DNA of 45,882 bases from an uncultured Candidatus Saccharibacteria bacterium (GTDB lineage: Bacteria; Patescibacteriota; Minisyncoccia; Phycocordibacterales; DATDSR01). The position numbers were made by a program, and so were the translations under genes. The first letter of the stretch is position 1; each line of letters starts with the position of its first letter. Positions 1,786 through 24,060 of this stretch are shown here, piece after piece. The stretch lies in NCBI GenBank assembly GCA_964348575.1, contig CAYGDD010000002.1, positions 1-45,882 on the forward strand, given 5' to 3'. Under the pieces are notes generated by a model that did not search any database, was not told the origin of the DNA, and was given only the letters and a program-made list of their open reading frames with translations.

Positions 1786-4700
1786 TGTATTATATGAGTA
1801 CATCTTTCATGAATAAGTATACAAGGATGATCTCTCGTCGCATCTTTAGCCTGTTGTTTATTGCAGGTTTGTTTATATTGCTATCTGTGCCCAAGCCAAC
1901 AGTGGCTGCATCTTCAAGCTTTAATAAGTTAATAAATTATCAAGGCAAGCTTACCGATAGTTCGAGCGTGTCAATTAGTGATGGTAGCTATAATATGACC
2001 TTCCGCTTGTACACTACAGCCACAGCTGGGGCACCCCTCTGGCAAGAGGAGTGGACTTCTACAAGTACTCAAGTTGTTGTAACAGGTGGGCTCTTCAGTG
2101 TCCTTTTGGGTTCTAATCTCGCTCTAACATCGGTTGACTTTAACCAAGGACTATATTTGGGAGTGGAGATTGGGAGCACAACTACTACACCCGTCTGGGA
2201 CGGAGAAATGACCCCAAGGAAAAGGCTCGGAGCCGTGCCGGCCGCCTTTGAAGCAGATAAGTTAGACGGTCTAGATTCTAGCCAGTTCGTGCGCTCGGAT
2301 GATTCGGGCACGATTGCATCTAGCTCAGCTTCAACCCTCCTCGCCCTAACCCAATCTGGGGCAGGTAATATATTTAGTCTAGCTAATTCTGCCGGAGCAG
2401 TGTTCACTGTTACCAACAGTGGCAATATTGGTATAGGTACAACTAGTCCTTACGCCGCTTTGTCCATAGTGGGTAGTACTGGTGTAGTGGCCGGTAAGTA
2501 CCATGCAACCAATACTAATGCCACTAGTACTTTCGCTGGGGAAGCTGTTTTTAGTGGACGCGTAGGTATTGGCACTACTAGTCCATACACAGCGCACGCA
2601 TTAATGGTGGCAGGTAATGGCGGCACGCAGTTAGACATCGACGGTGATTCTGGCACTGGTGCTACAGTTGGCATAAACATAACAAGTAATACTAGCCGGT
2701 CGTGGCAGGTTGGCGTTAAGGGTACGAACGAGTCAGGGGCGTTTATAATTTATGATTCAACAGCAGGAGTGAGGCGACTCACAATAGATAGTATTGGTAA
2801 TTTTGGCATCGGCACCACTTCTCCATACGCCAAACTCTCAGTAGTAGGTGAGGTGGTGGCTAGTCACTTTACCGGTACTACTAGCGCTAGTTCTACTTTC
2901 GGGGGGCCACTGTCTGTGGCGGGCACGGCCACAAGTACTTGGACTGGCAACGGTGTTAATATCACAGGCGGTGGGTGTTTCGCCATTAGTGGTACTTGCG
3001 TGGGGAGTATCAGTGGTAGTGGTAGTGCTGGTCGCCTGACATTTTGGAATGGCGCAAGCTCCATCACTTCTACTTCTACCTTCATCTGGGATGACAATAC
3101 GGGCAGATTAGGTATTGGCACAAGCTCGCCCTCGAGAATGATATCCGTAGTAGGGGGATCTGGATTCTTTGGTCTTGGGGATGCGGTGAGCTCGAGTACA
3201 CTAGTACGAGCATCTAACATTAGTACACTGGGTGGCTATACATTCTCAGCAAGTCAAGGCAGATATGTGTATCTACACTCAAGTACTGTTTTAGCTACGT
3301 TGTTTATTGGTCCAAATGCCAGCACTACCCTAGTTTCCAGCATAACCACAGCTACTGCGGGTGGGGGACGTATAAAAATAGACGGACAGTATCTCTATGT
3401 GTCACACGACACAGGTTCAACAGGTTCAGTAGACATTTTTGACATTTCTAGACCTTCAAAGCCAGAATTGGTCGGAGTAGTTGAACCTGCTACTAGGATA
3501 GGTGGGTTCGCTGTGGCGGGAGGTTTTCTGTATATTTCGCCACTTGATCAGACACTAAGAGCCTACGATGTGTCTAACCCTAATGCCCCAGTGTTATTAA
3601 AAATTTATACAACTCCTGGAGTGGGAGCTAACCTATCGCGCTTGACCGTAAATGGTAGATATATATTTGCAAGAGCGGGGAATAACAATGTGATGATCCT
3701 AGATATAGCCGACCCGACTAATATAAAGCTTGTGTCCAACTTCTCGACCACCGCTGGAGCCCAGTCGCTAGAAGTGAATGGTAGATACCTGCATGTGGGC
3801 ACAGTACAAAATGCTTCTGTGAACGAGTACCAGATATACGATCTTATTGACCCATATGCCCCTGCCTTAATGGGTGGGGTTGAGTTTGGAAAGGATGTAG
3901 AAACCGTCCGAGTAAGTGGACGGTATGCGTATATTGGCATTGATACAAATTCTGCCGGGCCAGAAATTTTTGTTTACGATATTGCTGACCCATTGGCGCC
4001 CGTGGCCGTAGCCTCTAATGAAGTTGGCAACCACGTATATGGTATTGAATTAATAGGTAGATATATTGTGGCAAGCACTAATTCTGGCTCTGGGCTTATT
4101 ATTTATGAGAACTCGTCTGTTGAGTCTGCTTCGGTCCTTGCTCACTACCTTGAGGCTGGCAGGGCGAGTGTGATAAGAGATCTGGTGGTGGGGGGCCAGG
4201 CATTTCTCAATACTTCTCTCAATGTAGGTATGGGAGGAATTGGGTCACTAGGTGCAGGCGCATTCAGGGTCTTCTCTACCAGTTCTATAGCCGTACTTCC
4301 TGCCATTGGAGGGTCGGTAACAGATGGTTCAAATAATACCGTAGCTAATGTTCTCAACTTAGCTCACTATGCCACCACGAGCGTTGGTGTGAGGGCGGGT
4401 ATTGGAGCTGGCCTTACCTTCTCGGCACAGAACAATGCCACTACCTCAACTACTACTGCCAGTGTTGCTGGCATACTTACTGATACATCTACGACTTCAC
4501 CTGCCGGAGCCCTTACTTTCTCTACCAAAGGTAGCAGCATAGGCCTTAGTGAACGTATGCGTATTACTTCTACTGGCCTAGTTGGCATCGGGACAACTAG
4601 TCCCTACGCCGCTCTCTCTGTAGTAGGCTCAACGGGTGTAGTGGCGGATAAATACTTCGCCACTTCTACTATTGCAACTAGTACCTTCATGAGCACATTG

Positions 4701-5675
4701 GCTATTGCTACTACCACGCCACTATCGAATGCAATATTCGTGGTAGCTACTTCCTCGGGCACGGCCTTGGTAATAAATAGAAGCAATGGCTATGTCGGTG
4801 TGGGCACTACAACTCCCACAGGCCAGTTCTCAGTAAATGGTTCAGTCTTTTTAAAGAACATCAGTATAAGCGCGGCTGGAGATTCTGCCATTTGTTCTAC
4901 CTTGGGGGGTGAGATACGTCTAGCTTTGGGCCAAACTGACTGTATTATGTCATCGGCGCGTTATAAGGAGAGCATCAGTGATCTTGATCAGGGTCTTGAC
5001 ATTATTAGACGTCTACGACCTGTTAGCTATAACTACATCGGCCTTGAGGGACGACATGTCGGATTTATTGCCGAAGAAGTTGATAAGATTGACCCTAGGC
5101 TAGTTGCCAGAGACCCTGAGGGCATCATCAGAAGTGTGAGGTATAGTGAGACTGTGGCCATCCTTGCTCGTGCCATTCAGGAGCTAGATACAAAGCTTGC
5201 AACCTCACTTAACTCTAATCTATCAGCTTTTAGTAGCAACTCTCTAAGCATACTTGCTTTAGCAGGAAAAGGCATAAGTGAAGTAAGTTATCTTAATGAT
5301 GTAAATAGTAACTGGAGTATCTCATCTGATGGTCTCTTGCGCACGCGTGAAGTGCGCACACAGAGATTGTGTGTGGGTAGTGTGTGCATTAACGAGCTAG
5401 ACCTGCGAGCTTTACTTATAAAAAATGACATATACATTAACGGTCCAGAAGAGAATGGTCTCCCTGCTCCCGTAGTTGATATCAGCCCCACACAGACGCC
5501 TACTAGTACACCGGTGGAAGAAATAATACCTACTAGCACAACAACCCCTACCACCACGCCCACTACCGTTATTACTCCACAGCAAAGCTTAACTCCCACC
5601 AGCACTCCAGTTGCGCTACCCCAAGTGCCACTTTTGTCACCCACTAGCACCCCCACTACTACCAACCAGCAATAG
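1782..5675 (+). CDS. Giant secreted fibre-like surface protein (signal anchor, GIGTTSP collar repeats, LVIVD-type beta-propeller, tail-fibre intramolecular chaperone/peptidase S74-like domain, Pro/Thr-rich tail)
   Basis: 1297-aa ORF with an ATGA overlap onto the upstream gene. The N-terminus is hydrophobic (IFSLLFIAGLFILLSVPKPTVAASS). There are six copies of G-x-[IVLF]-G-[IV]-G-T-[TS]-[ST]-P followed by ...LSVVG. About seven blades have the form x-G-[RQ]-Y-x-[YF]...[LI]-x-[IV]-[YF]-D-[IV]-[SA]-[DRN]-P. SSARYKESISDL...HVGFIAEEVDKIDPRL...SETVAILARAIQELDTKL resembles the endosialidase/tail-spike chaperone domain. The last ~90 aa are mostly P/T. Confidence 0.85.
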   Translation: MMYYMSTSFMNKYTRMISRRIFSLLFIAGLFILLSVPKPTVAASSSFNKLINYQGKLTDSSSVSISDGSYNMTFRLYTTATAGAPLWQEEWTSTSTQVVVTGGLFSVLLGSNLALTSVDFNQGLYLGVEIGSTTTTPVWDGEMTPRKRLGAVPAAFEADKLDGLDSSQFVRSDDSGTIASSSASTLLALTQSGAGNIFSLANSAGAVFTVTNSGNIGIGTTSPYAALSIVGSTGVVAGKYHATNTNATSTFAGEAVFSGRVGIGTTSPYTAHALMVAGNGGTQLDIDGDSGTGATVGINITSNTSRSWQVGVKGTNESGAFIIYDSTAGVRRLTIDSIGNFGIGTTSPYAKLSVVGEVVASHFTGTTSASSTFGGPLSVAGTATSTWTGNGVNITGGGCFAISGTCVGSISGSGSAGRLTFWNGASSITSTSTFIWDDNTGRLGIGTSSPSRMISVVGGSGFFGLGDAVSSSTLVRASNISTLGGYTFSASQGRYVYLHSSTVLATLFIGPNASTTLVSSITTATAGGGRIKIDGQYLYVSHDTGSTGSVDIFDISRPSKPELVGVVEPATRIGGFAVAGGFLYISPLDQTLRAYDVSNPNAPVLLKIYTTPGVGANLSRLTVNGRYIFARAGNNNVMILDIADPTNIKLVSNFSTTAGAQSLEVNGRYLHVGTVQNASVNEYQIYDLIDPYAPALMGGVEFGKDVETVRVSGRYAYIGIDTNSAGPEIFVYDIADPLAPVAVASNEVGNHVYGIELIGRYIVASTNSGSGLIIYENSSVESASVLAHYLEAGRASVIRDLVVGGQAFLNTSLNVGMGGIGSLGAGAFRVFSTSSIAVLPAIGGSVTDGSNNTVANVLNLAHYATTSVGVRAGIGAGLTFSAQNNATTSTTTASVAGILTDTSTTSPAGALTFSTKGSSIGLSERMRITSTGLVGIGTTSPYAALSVVGSTGVVADKYFATSTIATSTFMSTLAIATTTPLSNAIFVVATSSGTALVINRSNGYVGVGTTTPTGQFSVNGSVFLKNISISAAGDSAICSTLGGEIRLALGQTDCIMSSARYKESISDLDQGLDIIRRLRPVSYNYIGLEGRHVGFIAEEVDKIDPRLVARDPEGIIRSVRYSETVAILARAIQELDTKLATSLNSNLSAFSSNSLSILALAGKGISEVSYLNDVNSNWSISSDGLLRTREVRTQRLCVGSVCINELDLRALLIKNDIYINGPEENGLPAPVVDISPTQTPTSTPVEEIIPTSTTTPTTTPTTVITPQQSLTPTSTPVALPQVPLLSPTSTPTTTNQQ

Positions 5676-5683
5676 GTGGGGAT

Positions 5684-5712
5684 TTGCCCTAAGGTCAGAG
5701 CTAGCGTAGAAT
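5684..5712 (+). promoter_or_regulatory. Candidate promoter of mreB-1 (TTGCCC-17-TAGAAT), -10 only 6 nt upstream of the ATG
   Basis: TTGCCC at 5684-5689, 17-nt spacer, TAGAAT at 5707-5712, ATG at 5719. No SD lies in between. Confidence 0.45.
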
Positions 5713-5718
5713 GCCCGC

Positions 5719-6732
5719 ATGGCCTTCTTTATACGCAAATTGGGAATTGACCTCGGCACTGCTAACACACTCGTTTATGTGCCGGAGGAGGGGATAGTGC
5801 TCAACGAGCCCTCAGTTGTGGCCGTGTCAGAGATAGATAAGCGTGTCATGGCGGTAGGCCTTGAGGCTAAGGAGATGATAGGACGCACTCCCGATAACAT
5901 TGTGGCCTATAGGCCGATGAAGGATGGTGTCATCGCGGACTATAGGATTACTGAGGCTATGTTGCGTTACTATATGAATAAGGCTTTAGGTAAATGGAAT
6001 ATTTTTAAACCAGAGGTAATGGTGAGCGTACCCGCCGGCGTAACTTCAACAGAGAGGCGGGCCGTGGTAGAAGCTGCCATTAAGGCCGGGGCAAAGAACG
6101 CATATGTAGTTAAGGAGCCAATTCTTGCCGCTATCGGCGCCGGTATACCCATATACGAGGCTAAAGGACATATGGTGGTGGACATAGGTGGTGGTACGAC
6201 AGACGTAGCCGTGATCTCTCTTGGTGGCATTGTGGCCTCTACCAGTGTTAAGTGCGCTGGGGACAAGATCGATCAGGCCATCGCGGATTATATAAAGAAG
6301 ACCTTCAACCTCGCTATAGGTGATAAGACAGCGGAGGATGTTAAGATCAAGATTGGCTCAGCCCTACCTCTTAGTGTAGAGGAGAAGCATCCTGTAAAGG
6401 GCCGAGACTTCTTAACTGGGTTACCTAGGACTATTGAGATCAGCACAAACCAAATAGTGGTAGCTATAGATAATGAGCTAAAGCAGATTGTCAGGGCCAT
6501 TAGGGATGTCTTTCAAGAAACGCCCCCAGAACTAGCTTCAGATATTATTGACCAAGGTATTATAATGACCGGTGGTAGCTCCCAACTGCCTAACTTACCA
6601 GAACTAATCCACAAACGCACTGGAGTTAAAGCTAGTCTGGCCAATGACCCTCTGTACTGCGTGGTTAGGGGTACCGGTATTGCTCTAGAGCATCTTGAGA
6701 CTTATAAGAAAAGTATTTTATCTAAGCGCTAA
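5719..6732 (+). CDS. mreB: Rod-shape-determining actin homolog MreB (paralog 1)
   Basis: 337 aa with GIDLGTANTLVY, VVDIGGGTTDVAVISLGGIV and the full actin-fold ATPase signature. Confidence 0.93.
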   Translation: MAFFIRKLGIDLGTANTLVYVPEEGIVLNEPSVVAVSEIDKRVMAVGLEAKEMIGRTPDNIVAYRPMKDGVIADYRITEAMLRYYMNKALGKWNIFKPEVMVSVPAGVTSTERRAVVEAAIKAGAKNAYVVKEPILAAIGAGIPIYEAKGHMVVDIGGGTTDVAVISLGGIVASTSVKCAGDKIDQAIADYIKKTFNLAIGDKTAEDVKIKIGSALPLSVEEKHPVKGRDFLTGLPRTIEISTNQIVVAIDNELKQIVRAIRDVFQETPPELASDIIDQGIIMTGGSSQLPNLPELIHKRTGVKASLANDPLYCVVRGTGIALEHLETYKKSILSKR

Positions 6733-7370
6733 TGAGGCTAACTGAGTTTTTGAAATTCTTTGATGCAGTAGAGAGTAGTGTGCTTATACTTGAGCCGGTA
6801 GACAAGCATAATCTAGCCAAGATCCTCACCCAAAATAGATATGACGTGCAGACTCTAATCTACTCTGAGTTTGGTATTACTGAGGCACTTACTGTTAGAG
6901 ATCTAGTTTCCCGCACTAGCGGTAGCAGTAAGAGGGTTACAATAGTTGAATTATCAAGTATTAGTCTTGAGGCTCAGAACGCCTTGCTTAAAGTCCTAGA
7001 GGAGCTACCAGCCAACTCTCTGTTTGTATTTATTGTGCCTAGCGCGCAGATGCTTATTGCTACTATACGCTCGCGCTGTATTAATCTGGGCACTACCCCA
7101 ACCTTAGCCGGCGGGCAAGCTCAAGAATTTATACAAAGTGAACCCTCCGGTCGTCGCTTAGCCTATCTAGATGCAGACGGAGAAGTGGTGACAGAGAGCT
7201 TGACCAGACTCCTAGATGGGCTGGAGTTAGAGATTGGCCAAAAGTCCCTCCCTGCGCAGGCTGGAATTTTAAGAGAAATTATCCGACTTAGGAAGCTGAT
7301 GATTAATCGTGAGATCTCTGGTAAAATGGCTCTTGAGCAATTAGTAGCCATTATCCCTCAAGAAGTCTAA
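6732..7370 (+). CDS. holB: DNA polymerase III delta-prime-like clamp-loader subunit (short, no P-loop)
   Basis: 212 aa with ALLKVLEELP and ATIRSRC motifs typical of delta-prime/gamma-tau AAA+ sensor regions. No GxxGxGK is seen at the N-terminus. Confidence 0.6.
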   Translation: MRLTEFLKFFDAVESSVLILEPVDKHNLAKILTQNRYDVQTLIYSEFGITEALTVRDLVSRTSGSSKRVTIVELSSISLEAQNALLKVLEELPANSLFVFIVPSAQMLIATIRSRCINLGTTPTLAGGQAQEFIQSEPSGRRLAYLDADGEVVTESLTRLLDGLELEIGQKSLPAQAGILREIIRLRKLMINREISGKMALEQLVAIIPQEV

Positions 7371-19739: not shown

Positions 19740-21070
19740 TAAAAAATTTGTACAAAAAGTTTATTTTTTCAATCATGACTCTAGAGGCGCGTATGGTGTT
19801 AGCAATCACGCGTCCCAGAGTAATCGCAATTACAGGTACTATTGGTAAAACTACTACTAAGGATCTAATCTATGCTGTGCTAGCAAGTAGTCTAGAGGTT
19901 AGGAAGAATGTTAAGAGCTATAATTCGGCTATCGGCGTACCGCTTACTATCCTTGGTTTAGACAGTGCGTGGTCATCACCCCTAGGCTGGCTAGTTAACA
20001 CCCTCAAGGGAAGCCAGGTAGTAATTAAGTGTCTAATTAATCCCAGTTCGTATCCTAAGTTCTTAGTGCTGGAAGTGGGAGCAGATCATCCGGGTGACAT
20101 AGGGAACATAGTTTCGTGGCTTAGACCCGAGATGGGTCTCTTGACAGGGATTGGTAACGAAGTGCCAGTGCATGTTGAGTTCTTCCCTAACATCGAAGCC
20201 GTCATAGTAGAAAAGTCAAAACTTCTCAAATCCCTTCCAAGTAACGGCACAGCCTTCATTAATCATGATGACGCGAGAGCTTGGGGCGTGAGAGATTGCA
20301 CTAAGGCGTCAGTTGTGTCGTACGGCCTAGGCCCCGGTTGCGAGATTAAGGGTAGTAATCTAAATATTGCTTATGATAATTCTGGCCTGCCAATGGGTAT
20401 GTCGCTTAGGGTAGACCATAACGGCAAGAGTGTCCCAATTAGACTGATGGGCGTCCTTGGTGGGGGCAGTGCTGCTGCATCTATGGCCGCCATAGCCGTT
20501 GCTCTTAGGATGGGGATAAATTTTGTTGATATAGCCGAGGCTCTACAGGCACACAAGTTTGCCTCCGGGCGTATGCGTCTATTAAAAGGTCTCAATAATT
20601 GTATGCTGATAGATGACACATACAACTCCTCACCATCTGCGGTACGCATGGCTCTTGATACCCTGCATGAGCTCAACTTGGAACCTAAGGTTCCAAGTAA
20701 TAATGCGGGGCGTAAGATTGCCGTGTTGGGTGCCATGCTTGAGCTCGGTCTGCATAGCGAAAGCGAACACAAGAAGGTTGGCGAATGGCTACGTGGTGTG
20801 GTAGATGTAGTTGTGTGTGTGGGCCCCCTGGGTAGAGCAATAGGTGAGTCGGCTTTGGCTGATGGCTGTGAGAAGCGTCAGGTGCACTTCTTTGCTACTG
20901 CCATAGAAGCTGGAGAGTTTCTTAAAGCTTTTGTTAGAAGTGGTGACGTAGTATTACTTAAAGCTTCTCAATCAGTAAGATTGGAACAAGCAACCAAGAT
21001 GCTTTTGGCAGATCCGTCTCAAGCCTCCAAATTATTAGTTCGTCAAGAACGTGAGTGGCTAGATAGATAG
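19736..21070 (+). CDS. murF: UDP-N-acetylmuramoyl-tripeptide--D-alanyl-D-alanine ligase
   Basis: 444 aa with the Mur ligase P-loop ITGTIGKTTTKD and a MurF-type DDTYNSSPSA motif. Confidence 0.85.
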   Translation: MIKNLYKKFIFSIMTLEARMVLAITRPRVIAITGTIGKTTTKDLIYAVLASSLEVRKNVKSYNSAIGVPLTILGLDSAWSSPLGWLVNTLKGSQVVIKCLINPSSYPKFLVLEVGADHPGDIGNIVSWLRPEMGLLTGIGNEVPVHVEFFPNIEAVIVEKSKLLKSLPSNGTAFINHDDARAWGVRDCTKASVVSYGLGPGCEIKGSNLNIAYDNSGLPMGMSLRVDHNGKSVPIRLMGVLGGGSAAASMAAIAVALRMGINFVDIAEALQAHKFASGRMRLLKGLNNCMLIDDTYNSSPSAVRMALDTLHELNLEPKVPSNNAGRKIAVLGAMLELGLHSESEHKKVGEWLRGVVDVVVCVGPLGRAIGESALADGCEKRQVHFFATAIEAGEFLKAFVRSGDVVLLKASQSVRLEQATKMLLADPSQASKLLVRQEREWLDR

Positions 21071-21116
21071 AAAGTACGAGTAGTTAAGACTAGATTAAAC
21101 TTATAAGAAAAGAATA

Positions 21117-21142
21117 ACCGCTGGGGGAAGGCCCCCAACGGT
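21117..21142 (-). terminator. Rho-independent terminator of the GC-rich 138-aa gene
   Basis: ACCGCTGGGGG-AAGG-CCCCCAACGGT hairpin with one mismatch. On the minus strand it is followed by TATTCTTTTCTT, and it starts 1 nt after the stop codon. Confidence 0.7.
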
Positions 21143-21143
21143 A

Positions 21144-21560
21144 TCAGTCTCGTAGCGCCAGGGCCTGCTCCGTGAAGCAGGCTACTAGCACCAAGTCACG
21201 GTTAGTGACATTGCGAGTCACCTTCCGAGTCCTGGCCTCCGCCTTGTGACGGACGTCCACCCACTCCTCCTTACTGGTTCTGCCACCAGCGGCAGCAATC
21301 ACAGGAAGAGTAACAACAAATTCCACGGCAAGGAGGTAGTACCCACTCGGTAGTAAGCCGAGGTTCTCCTGCACCCTACCCTTGGTATTTGCTGGCACGA
21401 AATTATGGGGCTCGGTCTGCTCTCGCTCAATGCGAGTAGTGACTAAGTCACCCACCAACGGCTCTCGGTACCCGGTAGGAGGAGTGTATTTTGCTCCCCC
21501 TTCTTTTTTCCTTCTTCTTCTCTTCCACCTCACAGTGCTAGTTGCAGTGGTTGCTGGCAT
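21144..21560 (-). CDS. Hypothetical 138-aa protein with an Arg/Lys-rich N-terminus (island unit U1)
   Basis: I chose the ATG at 21560 (Met17 of the tracked ORF) because GGAGG (21568-21572) lies 7 nt upstream and the promoter occupies the rest of the tracked N-terminus. G+C/GC3 is higher than in the flanking genes. No family was recognised. Confidence 0.6.
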   Translation of the reverse strand: MPATTATSTVRWKRRRRKKEGGAKYTPPTGYREPLVGDLVTTRIEREQTEPHNFVPANTKGRVQENLGLLPSGYYLLAVEFVVTLPVIAAAGGRTSKEEWVDVRHKAEARTRKVTRNVTNRDLVLVACFTEQALALRD

Positions 21561-21579
21561 GGTGTTCCCTCCAATTAGC

Positions 21580-21608
21580 ATTATACCATAGGCATATATA
21601 TAATGCAA
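21580..21608 (-). promoter_or_regulatory. Near-consensus promoter TTGCAT-17-TATAAT for U1
   Basis: Minus strand: TTGCAT (21603-21608), 17-nt spacer, TATAAT (21580-21585), then GGAGG and ATG. Confidence 0.65.
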
Positions 21609-21671
21609 GGGTTATCCACAGATACTGTAGTTAGTCTTGGTGAATAAGTATGTGTGACGAGTAGGTAAGAG

Positions 21672-21700
21672 TGGAAAATTAGCAAGAAATAGGCTATATT
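21672..21700 (+). promoter_or_regulatory. Candidate promoter upstream of the tRNA-Glu leader (TGGAAA-17-TATATT)
   Basis: TGGAAA at 21672-21677, 17-nt spacer, TATATT at 21695-21700. The -35 box is weak. Confidence 0.35.
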
Positions 21701-21893
21701 AAGCGAGTCAGCCTAATGTGTCTTGGCCTAAATCCACAGTAGTGGATCGGCCGAACATTTTGCTGGCAAAATGTTTTAGGCCCTATCGTCTCCACCTACG
21801 CTCAAACTTGCGTATGAGCTTCGGAGGGACAAGTATCGGTAAATCACCCATGCTTGCCCTGCGAAGCTCCGATGTAAATCGGAGCGAAGTAGG

Positions 21894-21965
21894 GGCCCTA
21901 TCGTCTATCGGTTAGGACACAAGCTTCTCAAGCTTGGAAGCGGAGTTCGACTCTCCGTAGGGTCA
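21894..21965 (+). tRNA. tRNA-Glu (anticodon CUC), CCA not encoded
   Basis: Manual cloverleaf: acceptor GGCCCTA/TAGGGTC (one G-U), D-arm GTCT-ATCGGTTA-GGAC, anticodon arm CAAGC-TTCTCAA-GCTTG, variable GAAG, T-arm CGGAG-TTCGACT-CTCCG, discriminator A. The TCGTCTA...AGGACA D-region is typical of tRNA-Glu. Confidence 0.85.
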
Positions 21966-21980
21966 CAAATCGTAACAAAA

Positions 21981-22006
21981 ACACCCCATCTACGTGGGGT
22001 GTTTTT
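21981..22006 (+). terminator. Rho-independent terminator after tRNA-Glu
   Basis: ACACCCCA-TCTACG-TGGGGTGT followed by TTTT. Confidence 0.75.
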
Positions 22007-22011
22007 GTCAG

Positions 22012-22138
22012 AGAGCAAACTGCTTTGCTCTTGTGCGATTTGTGAAGACGGAAGCATGTTTTGCTACCAAGCAAAACGGCTGAGTCCGGGGCTGGGAAAT
22101 TCAGTTTCGACGGAAACTGAATTATTGTGGCTCACAAT
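22012..22138. repeat. Cluster of four perfect short hairpins
   Basis: AGAGCAAA-CTGC-TTTGCTCT (22012-22031). GTTTTGCT-ACCA-AGCAAAAC (22058-22077). AATTCAGTTTC-GACG-GAAACTGAATT (22098-22123). ATTGTG-GCT-CACAAT (22124-22138). Confidence 0.7.
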
Positions 22139-22200
22139 ATCACGTATGCGTAGCATTCCATTGTCTAGTCGAGGGAGTCATTCTCCGTAGTTCCCCAACA

Positions 22201-22370
22201 AGAAATAAACGGTGTCAGGTACCGTTTCTGTATGATATTATCCAGTCATGTTTGGGGCATTACATAAGGCTGAGAGTGTTTACCATGTCCCAAACTGAGC
22301 TAACGAGAGGCCTTTAGTATTTGACCAAAAAAAGTACCTGACCCCTTTTATCCCTGACCCCTTTTATCTT
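22201..22370 (+). repeat. 170-bp direct repeat, copy A (MITE-like, subterminal inverted repeats)
   Basis: Identical to 23347-23516 at every position I compared by eye. The left arm ATAAACGGTGTCAGGTAC (22205-22222) is a 16/18 inverted copy of GTACCTGACCCCTTTTAT (22334-22351). An internal 11-bp stem pairs 22250-22260 with 22285-22295. Confidence 0.85.
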
Positions 22371-22412
22371 AATGGGGACGGGGTGTTGGGTGCTGTGGGG
22401 GGAGACAAATGC

Positions 22413-22440
22413 TTGACAAGGTCAAGTCGGCTAGTGTAAT
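22413..22440 (+). promoter_or_regulatory. Promoter of island unit U2 (TTGACA-16-TGTAAT)
   Basis: TTGACA at 22413-22418 is embedded in the palindrome CTTGAC-AAG-GTCAAG (22412-22426). TGTAAT lies at 22435-22440. Confidence 0.6.
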
Positions 22441-22446
22441 GTAAGA

Positions 22447-23121
22447 TTGGAAGTTAGGCCGTCGAATGGCCGGAAATGGAGGAACACTTTGCCGATCTTC
22501 AACATCAGATTGATCCCACAGAACAAGGGCGACGACTTCTATCGTCGCATCTACGAAGACATGGTGGCAGTCGTTATGGCCGATCGTCAGTTGCAGAAGC
22601 GCTTCGAAGACCACAGGCAACTGAGCTTCTGCTTCAACGCTGACCTCATGGAGTACGGCATGGGGGAGGAAGTAGTGATCGAGGTTACGCGCATGCCACA
22701 GATCGAGGGCGTGCCCTGGGCAAGGATCGCCGCCGAACTTGGCCTCTCCATCACCACCCTGCTGCCCGACACCAAGCTGGTCAACGTTTACATCGGATCC
22801 GAAACCGCGCCCTTGGCCGAGTGGTCTTCTGCGGACATGGAGATCAACTTCCAGGAGTGGTGCGACCGGACCATGCACCTCTCGGAGACGGAATCATCCA
22901 TCAAGTCCCGCCTGGGCCAGCTGATGCTCCGCTACAAGGAGCCTCTCGTCCGGCACATCTTCAAGAGTGTCGCAGAGAAGGAGTTTGACGCTCACATCAT
23001 GCGCCTGCTTCACGAGCTCACTGGTGAGGATCCTGTCCACGAGTATGATCGGGGCAAGATCCGAGTCATGGCTGCTTTCTGGATGGGATGGGGCCGAACC
23101 GCTGGCTACGACACTCTGTAA
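22447..23121 (+). CDS. Hypothetical ~210-224-aa protein with a central helix-turn-helix-like segment (island unit U2)
   Basis: Strongly GC3-biased ORF flanked by a promoter and a terminator. The tracked TTG start is at 22447. A better start is the TTG at 22489, 6 nt after GGAGG (22478-22482). WARIAAELGLSITTL resembles an HTH. No family was recognised. Confidence 0.65.
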   Translation: MEVRPSNGRKWRNTLPIFNIRLIPQNKGDDFYRRIYEDMVAVVMADRQLQKRFEDHRQLSFCFNADLMEYGMGEEVVIEVTRMPQIEGVPWARIAAELGLSITTLLPDTKLVNVYIGSETAPLAEWSSADMEINFQEWCDRTMHLSETESSIKSRLGQLMLRYKEPLVRHIFKSVAEKEFDAHIMRLLHELTGEDPVHEYDRGKIRVMAAFWMGWGRTAGYDTL

Positions 23122-23346
23122 CCCACCGAGCCCTGGTGGTCCGACACGATACGCGATAGCGTCGTGATTGGGCCCCGGGCTCGATTTGTTTTAATACTTG
23201 ATTTATTTCAAACAAAGAGTAGTGCTTAATGGTGTGCTTAATGGTGTCAGGAACCTTTAATTTCAGCAACCCTTAATTTTCAGGTAGGCCAAAGCAGGTC
23301 TCACTTGTTAGACTCTCTGGGATCAGGTGTAGGAATAAACGGTGTC

Positions 23347-23516
23347 AGAAATAAACGGTGTCAGGTACCGTTTCTGTATGATATTATCCAGTCATGTTTG
23401 GGGCATTACATAAGGCTGAGAGTGTTTACCATGTCCCAAACTGAGCTAACGAGAGGCCTTTAGTATTTGACCAAAAAAAGTACCTGACCCCTTTTATCCC
23501 TGACCCCTTTTATCTT
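23347..23516 (+). repeat. 170-bp direct repeat, copy B
   Basis: Identical by eye to 22201-22370. It is preceded by an extra partial copy of its own first 15 nt (AATAAACGGTGTCAG at 23334-23348). Confidence 0.85.
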
Positions 23517-23637
23517 CGACAATTACATCACATATGGCAGATTAGCTCTCTATCTATAGCCGGTCGTAATTCTGCGTCTAGATAACACTTGCATGCTTTA
23601 CTTAAGCGATAGCAATTCTATTATTCTATTGAGTGCA

Positions 23638-23667
23638 TTGACAAAATGGATAATGTGTGCATATAAT
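23638..23667 (+). promoter_or_regulatory. Consensus promoter TTGACA-18-TATAAT of island unit U3
   Basis: TTGACA at 23638-23643 and TATAAT at 23662-23667. Confidence 0.65.
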
Positions 23668-23868
23668 GTATGTAGCTAACTAGTAACAGTATCGAAGGAG
23701 AACTCGTTATAGTTAGTAGATCTCTAAAATGATTCTGGAACCCTCTTGGAGTTACTTAGCTAGTACCTAACAACTAGCAACTAGTACCTACAAGAGGGAG
23801 GTGCGCGCTTTAGTCGCACCTGGACTTGCCTAGTCAGCAAGTGACAGCCCCTCGCTAAGGACAGAGTT

Positions 23869-24060
23869 ATGTTCAGAGCGATTGGATTTGTCATAGTGCT
23901 TCTAGCAGTCCGGTTCCTTATGCCAGTGGCCTTCCACTCGGCAGAGGACACCCTCGTTCAGGTCTTTGGCGCCTTGCAGAGCGCCGTGGCAGAAGTAAGC
24001 CAAAACAACCTGCTTGCCTCGCCATCAGGCGGGCTTGCCTCGCCTACGGTAAGTAGGTAG
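23869..24060 (+). CDS. Small 63-aa hydrophobic/secreted peptide (island unit U3)
   Basis: AAGGA (23857-23861) lies 7 nt before the ATG. The N-terminal segment MFRAIGFVIVLLAVRFLMPVAFHSA looks like a TM helix or signal peptide. G+C is high and a terminator follows directly. Confidence 0.5.
   Translation: MFRAIGFVIVLLAVRFLMPVAFHSAEDTLVQVFGALQSAVAEVSQNNLLASPSGGLASPTVSR

Follow-up and report, generated by a model that had tools for sequence, protein, structure and literature searches.

A 170-bp non-coding hairpin repeat in perfect direct duplicate around a foreign cassette in a Patescibacteria chromosome

Two identical repeats bracket a foreign gene

We analysed the 45,882-nt contig CAYGDD010000002.1 (assembly GCA_964348575.1), referred to as a whole as the window, which is bacterial chromosome carrying housekeeping genes of a member of the Paceibacterota (Patescibacteria). 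Between tRNA-Glu(CUC) and the gene for RmuC, two copies of a 170-bp non-coding repeat, here called R, lie in direct orientation around a foreign gene, the cargo, to give the arrangement R-cargo-R. Our preferred interpretation, which we advance tentatively, is that R is a non-autonomous hairpin repeat resembling miniature inverted-repeat transposable elements (MITEs) and REPINs (hairpins formed by paired repetitive extragenic palindromic, REP, sequences), and that a 1146-bp unit, the cassette with a single R, entered the chromosome at an R. Such a joining to a resident R would explain together the direct orientation of the copies, their perfect identity, the absence of target-site duplications and the single locus.

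Anatomy and edges of the repeat

The features of the repeat are as follows.

22201 to 22370: R copy 1, 170 bp; a left 16-nt unit, a 118-nt core with a stem-loop and two right 16-nt units
23347 to 23516: R copy 2, 170 bp, direct orientation; whole in contigs L001-L003, L006 and L007
22205 to 22230, again 23351 to 23376: left terminal inverted-repeat arm ATAAACGGTGTCAGGTACCGTTTCTG, itself a small palindrome AAACGGT-N7-ACCGTTT
22326 to 22351, again 23472 to 23497: right terminal inverted-repeat arm, 26 nt, 81% complementary
22337 to 22368, again 23483 to 23514: tandem right-end units CCTGACCCCTTTTATC, x2.0, period 16, 100% identical
22250 to 22295, again 23396 to 23441: central stem-loop, an 11-bp stem with one G-T pair and a 24-nt loop
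23333 to 23348: extra left unit GAATAAACGGTGTCAG, abutting copy 2, one mismatch; period 16, x2.5, at 23326-23364
23240 to 23251, plus strand: further left-type motif AATGGTGTCAGG, in the repeat-rich 3' non-coding part of the cargo segment

By computation the two copies agree at 170/170 positions, as an initial annotation made from the sequence had judged by eye. Their starts are 1146 bp apart and the segment between them measures 976 bp; one R plus the cargo makes a unit of 1146 bp. The 80 nt beyond each edge of R show no relatedness (z -0.9 and -1.4), so that the edges are sharply bounded. R is non-coding: the only open reading frame (ORF) of at least 20 aa wholly inside it is a 20-codon frame, and no gene was called there in any assembly. 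It was also correctly described as AT-richer than what it encloses, with 41.2% GC compared to 54.4% in the cargo segment, 57.5% in the cargo gene and 46% in the window.

Each R consists of a left unit AAATAAACGGTGTCAG, a 118-nt body (GTACCG...AAGTAC, with the stem-loop inside) and two right units CTGACCCCTTTTATCY, the right 16-nt units being the left unit inverted (13/16). The 18-nt inverted-repeat pair reported initially (ATAAACGGTGTCAGGTAC versus the reverse complement of GTACCTGACCCCTTTTAT, 16/18) was reproduced: the best gapless inverted-repeat score of R is 16, compared to 7.8 +/- 1.3 in dinucleotide shuffles, and 0/1000 shuffles reach 16. The arms extend to 26 nt at 81% (22205-22230 / 22326-22351) and, owing to the extra left unit, to 42 nt at 79% in copy 2. 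The tandem duplication noted at the right end was recovered as well. So was the internal stem, in which 22250-22260 (GTTTGGGGCAT) pairs with 22285-22295 (ATGTCCCAAAC) within the minimum-free-energy fold; folding of the repeat as RNA, which had been proposed as a check, gave -43.4 kcal/mol (z -2.6). The core AACGGTGTCAGG, allowing at most 2 mismatches, has 10 matches in the window versus 2.0 expected, and 8/10 fall in the R-cargo-R locus; those pointed out earlier outside the repeats, at 23243-23251 and 23341-23348, are indeed present. The 150 nt of non-coding DNA 3' of the cargo gene are repeat-rich (12 nt x2.2 at 23222-23247; 16 nt x2.1 at 23247-23279).

The edges of identity are informative. 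The extra left unit renders copy 2 locally symmetric, with two units per side, and its last two bases (AG, 23347-23348) are inside the 170-bp identity. On the left, identity starts at most 2 nt from where the extra left unit meets the first one (GGTGTCAG^AAATAAAC); on the right, it stops 1 nt beyond the end of the outer right unit. The identity spans essentially a whole number of units, and we regard this as the main internal evidence for a process that recognises the ends of the element and against a random duplication. No target-site duplication surrounds either copy (flanks CCCCAACA / AATGGGGA for copy 1, CGGTGTC / CGACAATT for copy 2) or the whole R-cargo-R unit (outer flanks ...CCAACA and CGACAA...).

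The cargo is a passenger

The cargo segment contains one gene with its own signals.

22489 to 23121, plus strand: cargo gene, 210 aa, TTG start; same call in 5 assemblies
22413 to 22482, plus strand: cargo expression signals, read from the sequence directly
23166 to 23195, plus strand: intrinsic-terminator-like hairpin and T-run, closing the cargo gene

Judging by composition, the cargo is clearly foreign, as had been proposed for the bracketed gene: its GC content at third codon positions (GC3) is 0.78 versus 0.466 +/- 0.05 in host genes, and its codon-usage distance 0.38 versus 0.12-0.23 for host genes. We take it to be a recent acquisition. It seems to carry its own putative promoter, not listed by the promoter scan, with a perfect -35 TTGACA (22413-22418), an 18-nt spacer and a weak -10 TAATGT (3/6 to consensus). 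A GGAGG Shine-Dalgarno sequence (22478-22482) stands 6 nt ahead of the TTG.

The protein begins MPIFNIRL...; its homologues share the MP... N-terminus and thereby the Pro at residue 2. No close relative was found among 5.8 billion proteins, and Pfam, PHROG, PADLOC and NCBIfam returned no match; the remote homologues number 67, of which two are full length (32-36% identity). An AlphaFold2 model (pLDDT, the predicted local distance difference test, 94.3) was compared using Foldseek, and the N-terminal ~115 residues matched fused 4-oxalocrotonate tautomerase (4-OT), cis-CaaD and MIF (E ~4e-3, probability 1.0), and the C-terminal ~85 residues fold into a helical domain of a sort often seen in small proteins. 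The predicted fold is that of a tautomerase, not of a transposase, Rep or integrase, which argues for a passenger and not a mobility enzyme.

The cargo was seen solely at the present locus, in 5 assemblies, and both cargo and R are absent from the phage and plasmid collections searched. Its homologues stand in ordinary gene contexts, with no R-like repeats beside those in contigs L008 and L009. In L009 (1-2202), the full-length homologue P0003 and a MerR-family gene are enclosed by short repeats in two near-identical pairs. One pair is a 30-nt palindrome AAGTTAGACGCTATAGCGTCTAACTTGTCC and the other a 44-nt unit, and neither is related to R in sequence.

The unit occupies a variable site next to a tRNA gene

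Two features define the location.

21894 to 21966, plus strand: tRNA-Glu(CUC); lineage-specific DNA starts at its 3' end
21967 to 23758: lineage-specific segment, from the tRNA-Glu 3' end to the conserved region upstream of RmuC; it holds R-cargo-R

The gene order of the window begins with MreB, RRF, RseP, ProRS, PBP2, MraZ-RsmH-FtsI-MurF, tRNA-Glu(CUC) and the R-cargo-R unit; to the right follow RmuC, L21, RecR, DnaB, CysRS, CtpA, L9, L27, GluRS, MurG, FtsW and others. A phage or plasmid origin of the window was considered and rejected in view of its dcw-cluster (division and cell wall), aminoacyl-tRNA synthetase, ribosomal protein and DnaB/RecR genes. The closest RmuC proteins (82-84% identity) carry the name Candidatus Paceibacterota.

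Relatives keep the synteny FtsI-MurF ... RmuC-L21-RecR-DnaB, and the MurF-RmuC interval varies: in one relative it contains small ORFs and a HicA toxin-antitoxin pair besides YbaK and NUDIX, and in another a type I restriction-modification system and a helix-turn-helix (HTH) protein, again with YbaK and NUDIX. The HicA pair and the restriction-modification system adjoin tRNA-Glu. The ybaK-nudix pair that precedes RmuC in relatives is missing from the window, replaced by the lineage-specific segment. In blastn comparisons with relatives L167-L171, no counterpart of 21967-23758 and no R-like sequence at the locus were found; the window tRNA segment 21774-21965 is inverted relative to them, and homology resumes at 23759-23979 onward. 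The tRNA-Glu(CUC) gene lies on the strand opposite to RmuC in both relatives. The DNA 3' of tRNA-Glu is thus a hot spot that varies across the group. Patescibacteria are documented to have prophages, competence-based uptake and genomic islands, some of the latter with type I restriction-modification systems (PMC12455944).

Hairpin repeats with a related core in metagenomes

Metagenomes were searched by a degenerate scan that specified only the two terminal-repeat cores of R (CGGTGTCAGGT N90-120 ACCTGACCCC). The scan returned 72 loci. A fixed 137-nt spacing is found in 29/72, and these were discarded as repeats, since spot checks of two (L094, L166) revealed a conserved metK-like coding sequence. 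About 40 others are intergenic nested hairpin arrays, mostly on high-GC soil and rhizosphere contigs (L095, L097, L098, L100, L107, L110, L111, L114, L115, L120, L122, L123, L125, L126, L129, L132-L136, L138, L141, L144, L145, L147, L148, L150, L153, L156, L158, L161, L162, L164 and L165, with L174 from IMG/VR). They contain extra internal motif copies, with several direct units followed by an equal number of inverted units, neither of which the search pattern imposed. Nor did it impose the sharp consensus at the outer edge of every unit, C-GG[G/T]GTCAGGTC-T (149 instances).

The arrays comprise at least 8 sequence families that differ in their inner sequence, again independently of the search pattern. 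A single contig can hold several copies of a member, in either orientation (L133). In 13/34 loci, and likewise not imposed by the pattern, GACMCC plus 6-13 flanking nt is duplicated in tandem at the outer boundary, the same peculiarity as the doubled end of R. The 7.4-kb contig L174 belongs to a Mu-like phage (gpT major head, Gp36, Gp37, tail tube) and has five 55-nt copies: between its structural genes (1826-7335) lie near-identical GGGGTCAGGTCTTG...CAAGACCTGACCCC hairpins in both inner orientations, 4/5 of them with a GGAGT flank on one side. The scan match most like R, L106, is ambiguous, as it overlaps an ORF in a gammaproteobacterial-like chemotaxis locus.

No protein family recurs beside the arrays. 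When the motif strings were searched for in the literature, the only matches were eukaryotic primers and response elements of no relevance, and a plasmid database gave nothing meaningful for the two main metagenomic repeat families. By these sequence-string and text searches, the GGKGTCAGG(TC) repeat set appears to be both widespread and undescribed. A true relationship between R and this set is likely, if unproven.

How the unit may have formed

In the scenario that we propose, R would be a 170-bp non-coding element whose 16-nt terminal units, with their GGKGTCAGG core, surround a 118-nt body. One R together with a self-expressing foreign cassette would join the chromosome at a resident R, either through homologous recombination, after DNA uptake, between the incoming and the resident R, or through an end-specific enzyme supplied in trans. 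As the copies are direct and identical, the unit could loop out and the cargo be deleted: RecA-type recombination would release a 1146-bp circle and leave one R behind. Loss of the cargo by homologous recombination had been anticipated in the initial annotation, as had a recent event or maintained identity behind the zero divergence; the perfect identity of the copies implies one or the other. Two independent hops would be less parsimonious, because the copies are 976 bp apart in the same orientation, have no counterpart in the other 44 kb and lack target-site duplications. With 41% GC, R is AT-rich and host-like beside its GC-rich cargo, which fits a resident or lineage-adapted repeat as the landing site. 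If the link to the metagenomic set is real, the GGKGTCAGG core shared by the ends of R and by multi-copy hairpins in two orientations favours a mobile, non-autonomous R.

Several results weigh against this scenario. The left-type motifs in the 3' non-coding region of the cargo (23240, 23333) are not explained by a foreign gene plus a resident R, and neither a target-site duplication nor an enzyme acting in trans was found. No contig examined displays a one-repeat (empty) allele or a resident single R. A third copy of R, even degenerate, is absent from the remaining 44 kb of the window; R is likewise absent from syntenic relatives and from 80 Patescibacteria RmuC loci (873 kb), in which the core motif occurs 5 times versus 12 expected. 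Scans of GTDB representatives, IMG/VR and JGI metagenomes gave no match to an exact R 34-mer, and other R sub-sequences and patterns are absent from IMG/VR. As for the arrays, the link is only suggestive because the set was found by searching with R's own core, and the R motif (GGKGTCAGGTAC) leaves the metagenomic consensus at the next base (GGTAC, not GGTC).

We weighed our scenario against several others. A classical composite MITE transposon is unlikely: here two MITEs would have hopped around a resident foreign gene, or the whole unit would have transposed via its outer inverted repeats, with a transposase elsewhere. It would account for the significant terminal inverted repeats of R, its small size and lack of coding capacity, and for related-core repeats being multi-copy and in both orientations elsewhere. 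MITE-flanked cassettes are moreover known, such as the IMU (integron mobilization unit) element and the 439-bp Acinetobacter MITEs around integrons. However, target-site duplications are missing for each copy and for the composite, the cargo protein occurs at the present locus only, and a same-orientation pair 976 bp apart with none in the other 44 kb would need strong local targeting. The initial annotation, which described a composite MITE-like unit, had proposed counting copies, defining target-site duplications and looking for a cognate transposase. What stands of that description is a discrete non-coding element with terminal inverted repeats, a foreign cargo and a shared core, whereas the window and the collections searched hold no third copy, no duplication was detected, and the 45.9-kb window encodes no transposase (Y1 included) or integrase, with no Phage_integrase match among the window ORFs scanned. 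That last result also bears on att-type site-specific integration, which we regard as quite improbable; R would then serve as a long attachment site, with its direct and inverted 16-nt units bound by a tyrosine or serine recombinase from elsewhere, in a tRNA-linked cassette like the cis-mobilizable elements (CIMEs). The direct repeats, which lack target-site duplications, suit it, as do the arrays of short units in direct and inverted orientation, reminiscent of arm and core sites, and a position 3' of tRNA-Glu in a hot spot variable in relatives. Yet no integrase is found within 46 kb, a 170-bp shared core is unusually long, and R shows no similarity to the tRNA. The only tRNA-3'-like stretch, downstream of the tRNA at 22173-22192 and tried as the remnant of an att site, has a score of 11 that 18/200 shuffles reach, and is not significant.

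There is only a slim chance that R is a non-mobile regulatory or insulating module (a bidirectional terminator with an outward promoter, or a structured small RNA) copied by ordinary recombination. Signals of the expected kind are present: a terminator-like hairpin on the minus strand at the left end of R (22227-22207), facing leftwards; a TTTTAT following the closing stem; a promoter-like site with an extended -10 facing rightwards (22212-22241 and 23358-23387); and the low fold z-score. However, relatives have no R-like sequence at the locus, edges that fall on terminal units together with perfect identity are better explained by an element-specific event, and Rfam holds no match to R even at E up to 5. 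A structured RNA or single-stranded DNA (ssDNA) element duplicated around an insertion, which had been offered initially as an alternative, may also apply.

The arrangement itself could be an artefact, a possibility to which we assign little weight: a single R would be chromosomal, and R plus cargo would sit on a separate molecule, such as a 1146-bp circle or another replicon, threaded in by the assemblers. All four junctions are present at 100% identity in three MEGAHIT (ERZ27247820/28/30) and two Logan (ERR3094294/96) assemblies, which apparently derive from the same strain (at most 2 mismatches per contig relative to the window). However, as the 170-bp exact repeat is longer than every k used (at most 141), an integrated R-cargo-R and one chromosomal R with a free R-cargo circle give an identical de Bruijn graph. 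The Logan contig L006 (k=31 assembly) is a closed R-cargo cycle of 1146 + 30 nt, which would suit our scenario as well, and an integrated unit produces the same graph; contigs L007 and L091 break at the end of R. Among L001-L004, all three MEGAHIT contigs that read through copy 2 begin within copy 1, and their overhangs are k-sized (99, 119 and 122 nt). The left MEGAHIT contig ends at R position 99, an odd asymmetry between identical copies. Against an artefact, the cargo adjoins RmuC both in the 45.9-kb contig and in three assemblies made independently, and it encodes no replication protein. In addition, the chromosomal Logan contigs (L090, L091) are as fragmented as the cargo contigs, and for this reason there is no indication of a high-copy circle.

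A much bolder idea, which we consider very improbable, is that R-type palindromic repeats are not transposons but integration platforms that are duplicated whole upon insertion, belonging to a widespread and undescribed gene-capture system marked by CGGKGTCAGGTC. An enzyme would recognise the GTCAG^ / ^CTGAC unit boundaries at the base of an extruded hairpin and make staggered cuts on either side of the whole repeat; incoming DNA would be inserted, and gap repair would duplicate the 170-bp repeat. The 13-16-nt boundary duplications (in R and in 13/34 related-core loci) would then be footprints of abortive reactions. Repeat duplication during CRISPR spacer acquisition follows the same logic.

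Other observations around the unit

Short hairpins crowd the 234-bp stretch that separates the tRNA from R copy 1 (21967-22200), among them a perfect 14-bp stem at 21975-22008 and the pairs GAGAGCAAA/TTTGCTCTC, GTTTTGCT/AGCAAAAC and AATTCAGTTTC/GAAACTGAATT. This stretch has no Rfam match and no counterpart in relatives. The tRNA-Glu(CUC) gene with its upstream region (21774-21966) aligns in inverted orientation to L167:3940-4133 and L170:4121-4192. Adjoining the inverted tRNA segment is a minus-strand ORF (21144-21608; 138-154 aa, 53% GC). Its product has an N-terminal stretch that is highly basic (RWKRRRRKKEGG), and Pfam, PHROG, PADLOC and NCBIfam gave no match for it.

On the other side, a conserved element rich in AGTACCTA (CTAGTACCTAACAACTAG...), with CCCTCTTG/CAAGAGGG around it, lies at 23730-23800, upstream of a 63-aa ORF and RmuC. 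In the relative L170 (4781-4812, 5650-5681), it has a 32-nt, 88% inverted partner inside ybaK. The element could be a regulatory or recombination site. A look-up of the 63-aa ORF left of R returned no record.

The contig L093 (ERZ27247830), which corresponds to 20295-21967, is identical to the window through 21926. The 5 differences that follow fall within the 3' half of the tRNA: CTC becomes TTC in the anticodon, and the T-stem has compensatory changes. The contig ends 2 nt past the tRNA. It would be either chimeric, with a tRNA-Glu(UUC) paralogue joined on, or the product of an allelic replacement of the tRNA 3' half. L093 had been taken as a strain without the island; this was withdrawn, given that the differences are confined to the tRNA 3' half and a chimera is possible.

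Significance

Patescibacteria have tiny, streamlined genomes, in which the uptake and fixation of foreign genes are poorly known; a single text search found no small repeat-based cassette. If our interpretation is true, gene gain with reversible loss would have a concrete and testable example for this group in the enzyme-less R-cargo-R unit at its tRNA-linked hot spot. The GGKGTCAGG(TC) repeat set is a by-product more intriguing than the unit itself, and an enzyme family recognising this motif across phyla, if one exists, would be worth finding.

Comparison with known systems

Several kinds of element were compared, and some of them set aside. An Obelisk or viroid-like circle of ~1.1 kb was rejected: the circular fold (-410 versus -384 +/- 9 kcal/mol in shuffles) does not have its pairs on one axis, and the cargo has a DNA-level chromosomal context. 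A small replicon (Rep plus iterons) or a CRESS (circular Rep-encoding single-stranded) or rolling-circle origin was also rejected; R contains TAGTATT, which resembles the TAGTATTAC nonanucleotide, but the motif has no convincing stem-loop and the cargo no HUH Rep fold. Chromosomal integron cassettes, set aside as well, resemble R in that their attC repeats, such as VCR (Vibrio cholerae repeats), are ~120-170 bp long, have internal dyad symmetry and separate single foreign genes. However, the left end of R, AATAAAC, is 5/7 to RYYYAAC, its right end has no GTTRRRY and no intI is nearby; unlike an integron cassette, the cargo has its own Shine-Dalgarno sequence and putative promoter, and there is one cassette only. 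CIMEs share with R-cargo-R a recombinase-less cassette, direct repeats and a tRNA-linked island, but their repeats derive from the 3' end of the target gene.

As for transposable elements, R has the size of a MITE (170 bp, below about 600 bp), is non-coding and has terminal inverted repeats; it lacks the target-site duplication. MITE-flanked composites, such as the IMU and the class 1 integrons flanked by 439-bp MITEs in Acinetobacter, likewise have short, non-autonomous elements with inverted-repeat ends in the same orientation around cargo, but these have 5-bp target-site duplications and identifiable parents (Tn3, IS), and R has neither. A composite transposon would also be expected to have a target-site duplication around the unit and to occur at other sites, and R-cargo-R has only the one location. 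Like R, the REP, REPIN and BIME (bacterial interspersed mosaic element) sequences mobilised by RAYTs (REP-associated tyrosine transposases) consist of two short palindromic units inverted to give one long hairpin, are intergenic and have no target-site duplication. BIMEs are moreover nested and multi-copy, like the related-core metagenomic repeats. In contrast, R at 170 bp is longer than typical REPINs, for which an arrangement as perfect direct repeats around a cargo is not known.

The translocatable units and pseudo-compound transposons of IS26, like R-cargo-R, hold a passenger between two identical direct copies. There, the element with its passenger can circularise and re-enter at an existing copy without target-site duplication, and it is lost by recombination between copies. 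IS26 is an 820-bp element encoding its own transposase, whereas R is 170 bp, non-coding and without a known enzyme; R-cargo-R occurs at one location, and a circular form of it is putative. A Campbell-type insertion follows the same logic as the joining of R plus cargo to a resident R. Taken together, IS26-type translocatable units, MITE-flanked cassettes, REPIN/BIME repeats and CIMEs are the closest kinds, and by this comparison R-cargo-R looks like a variant of a broadly known small mobile cassette.

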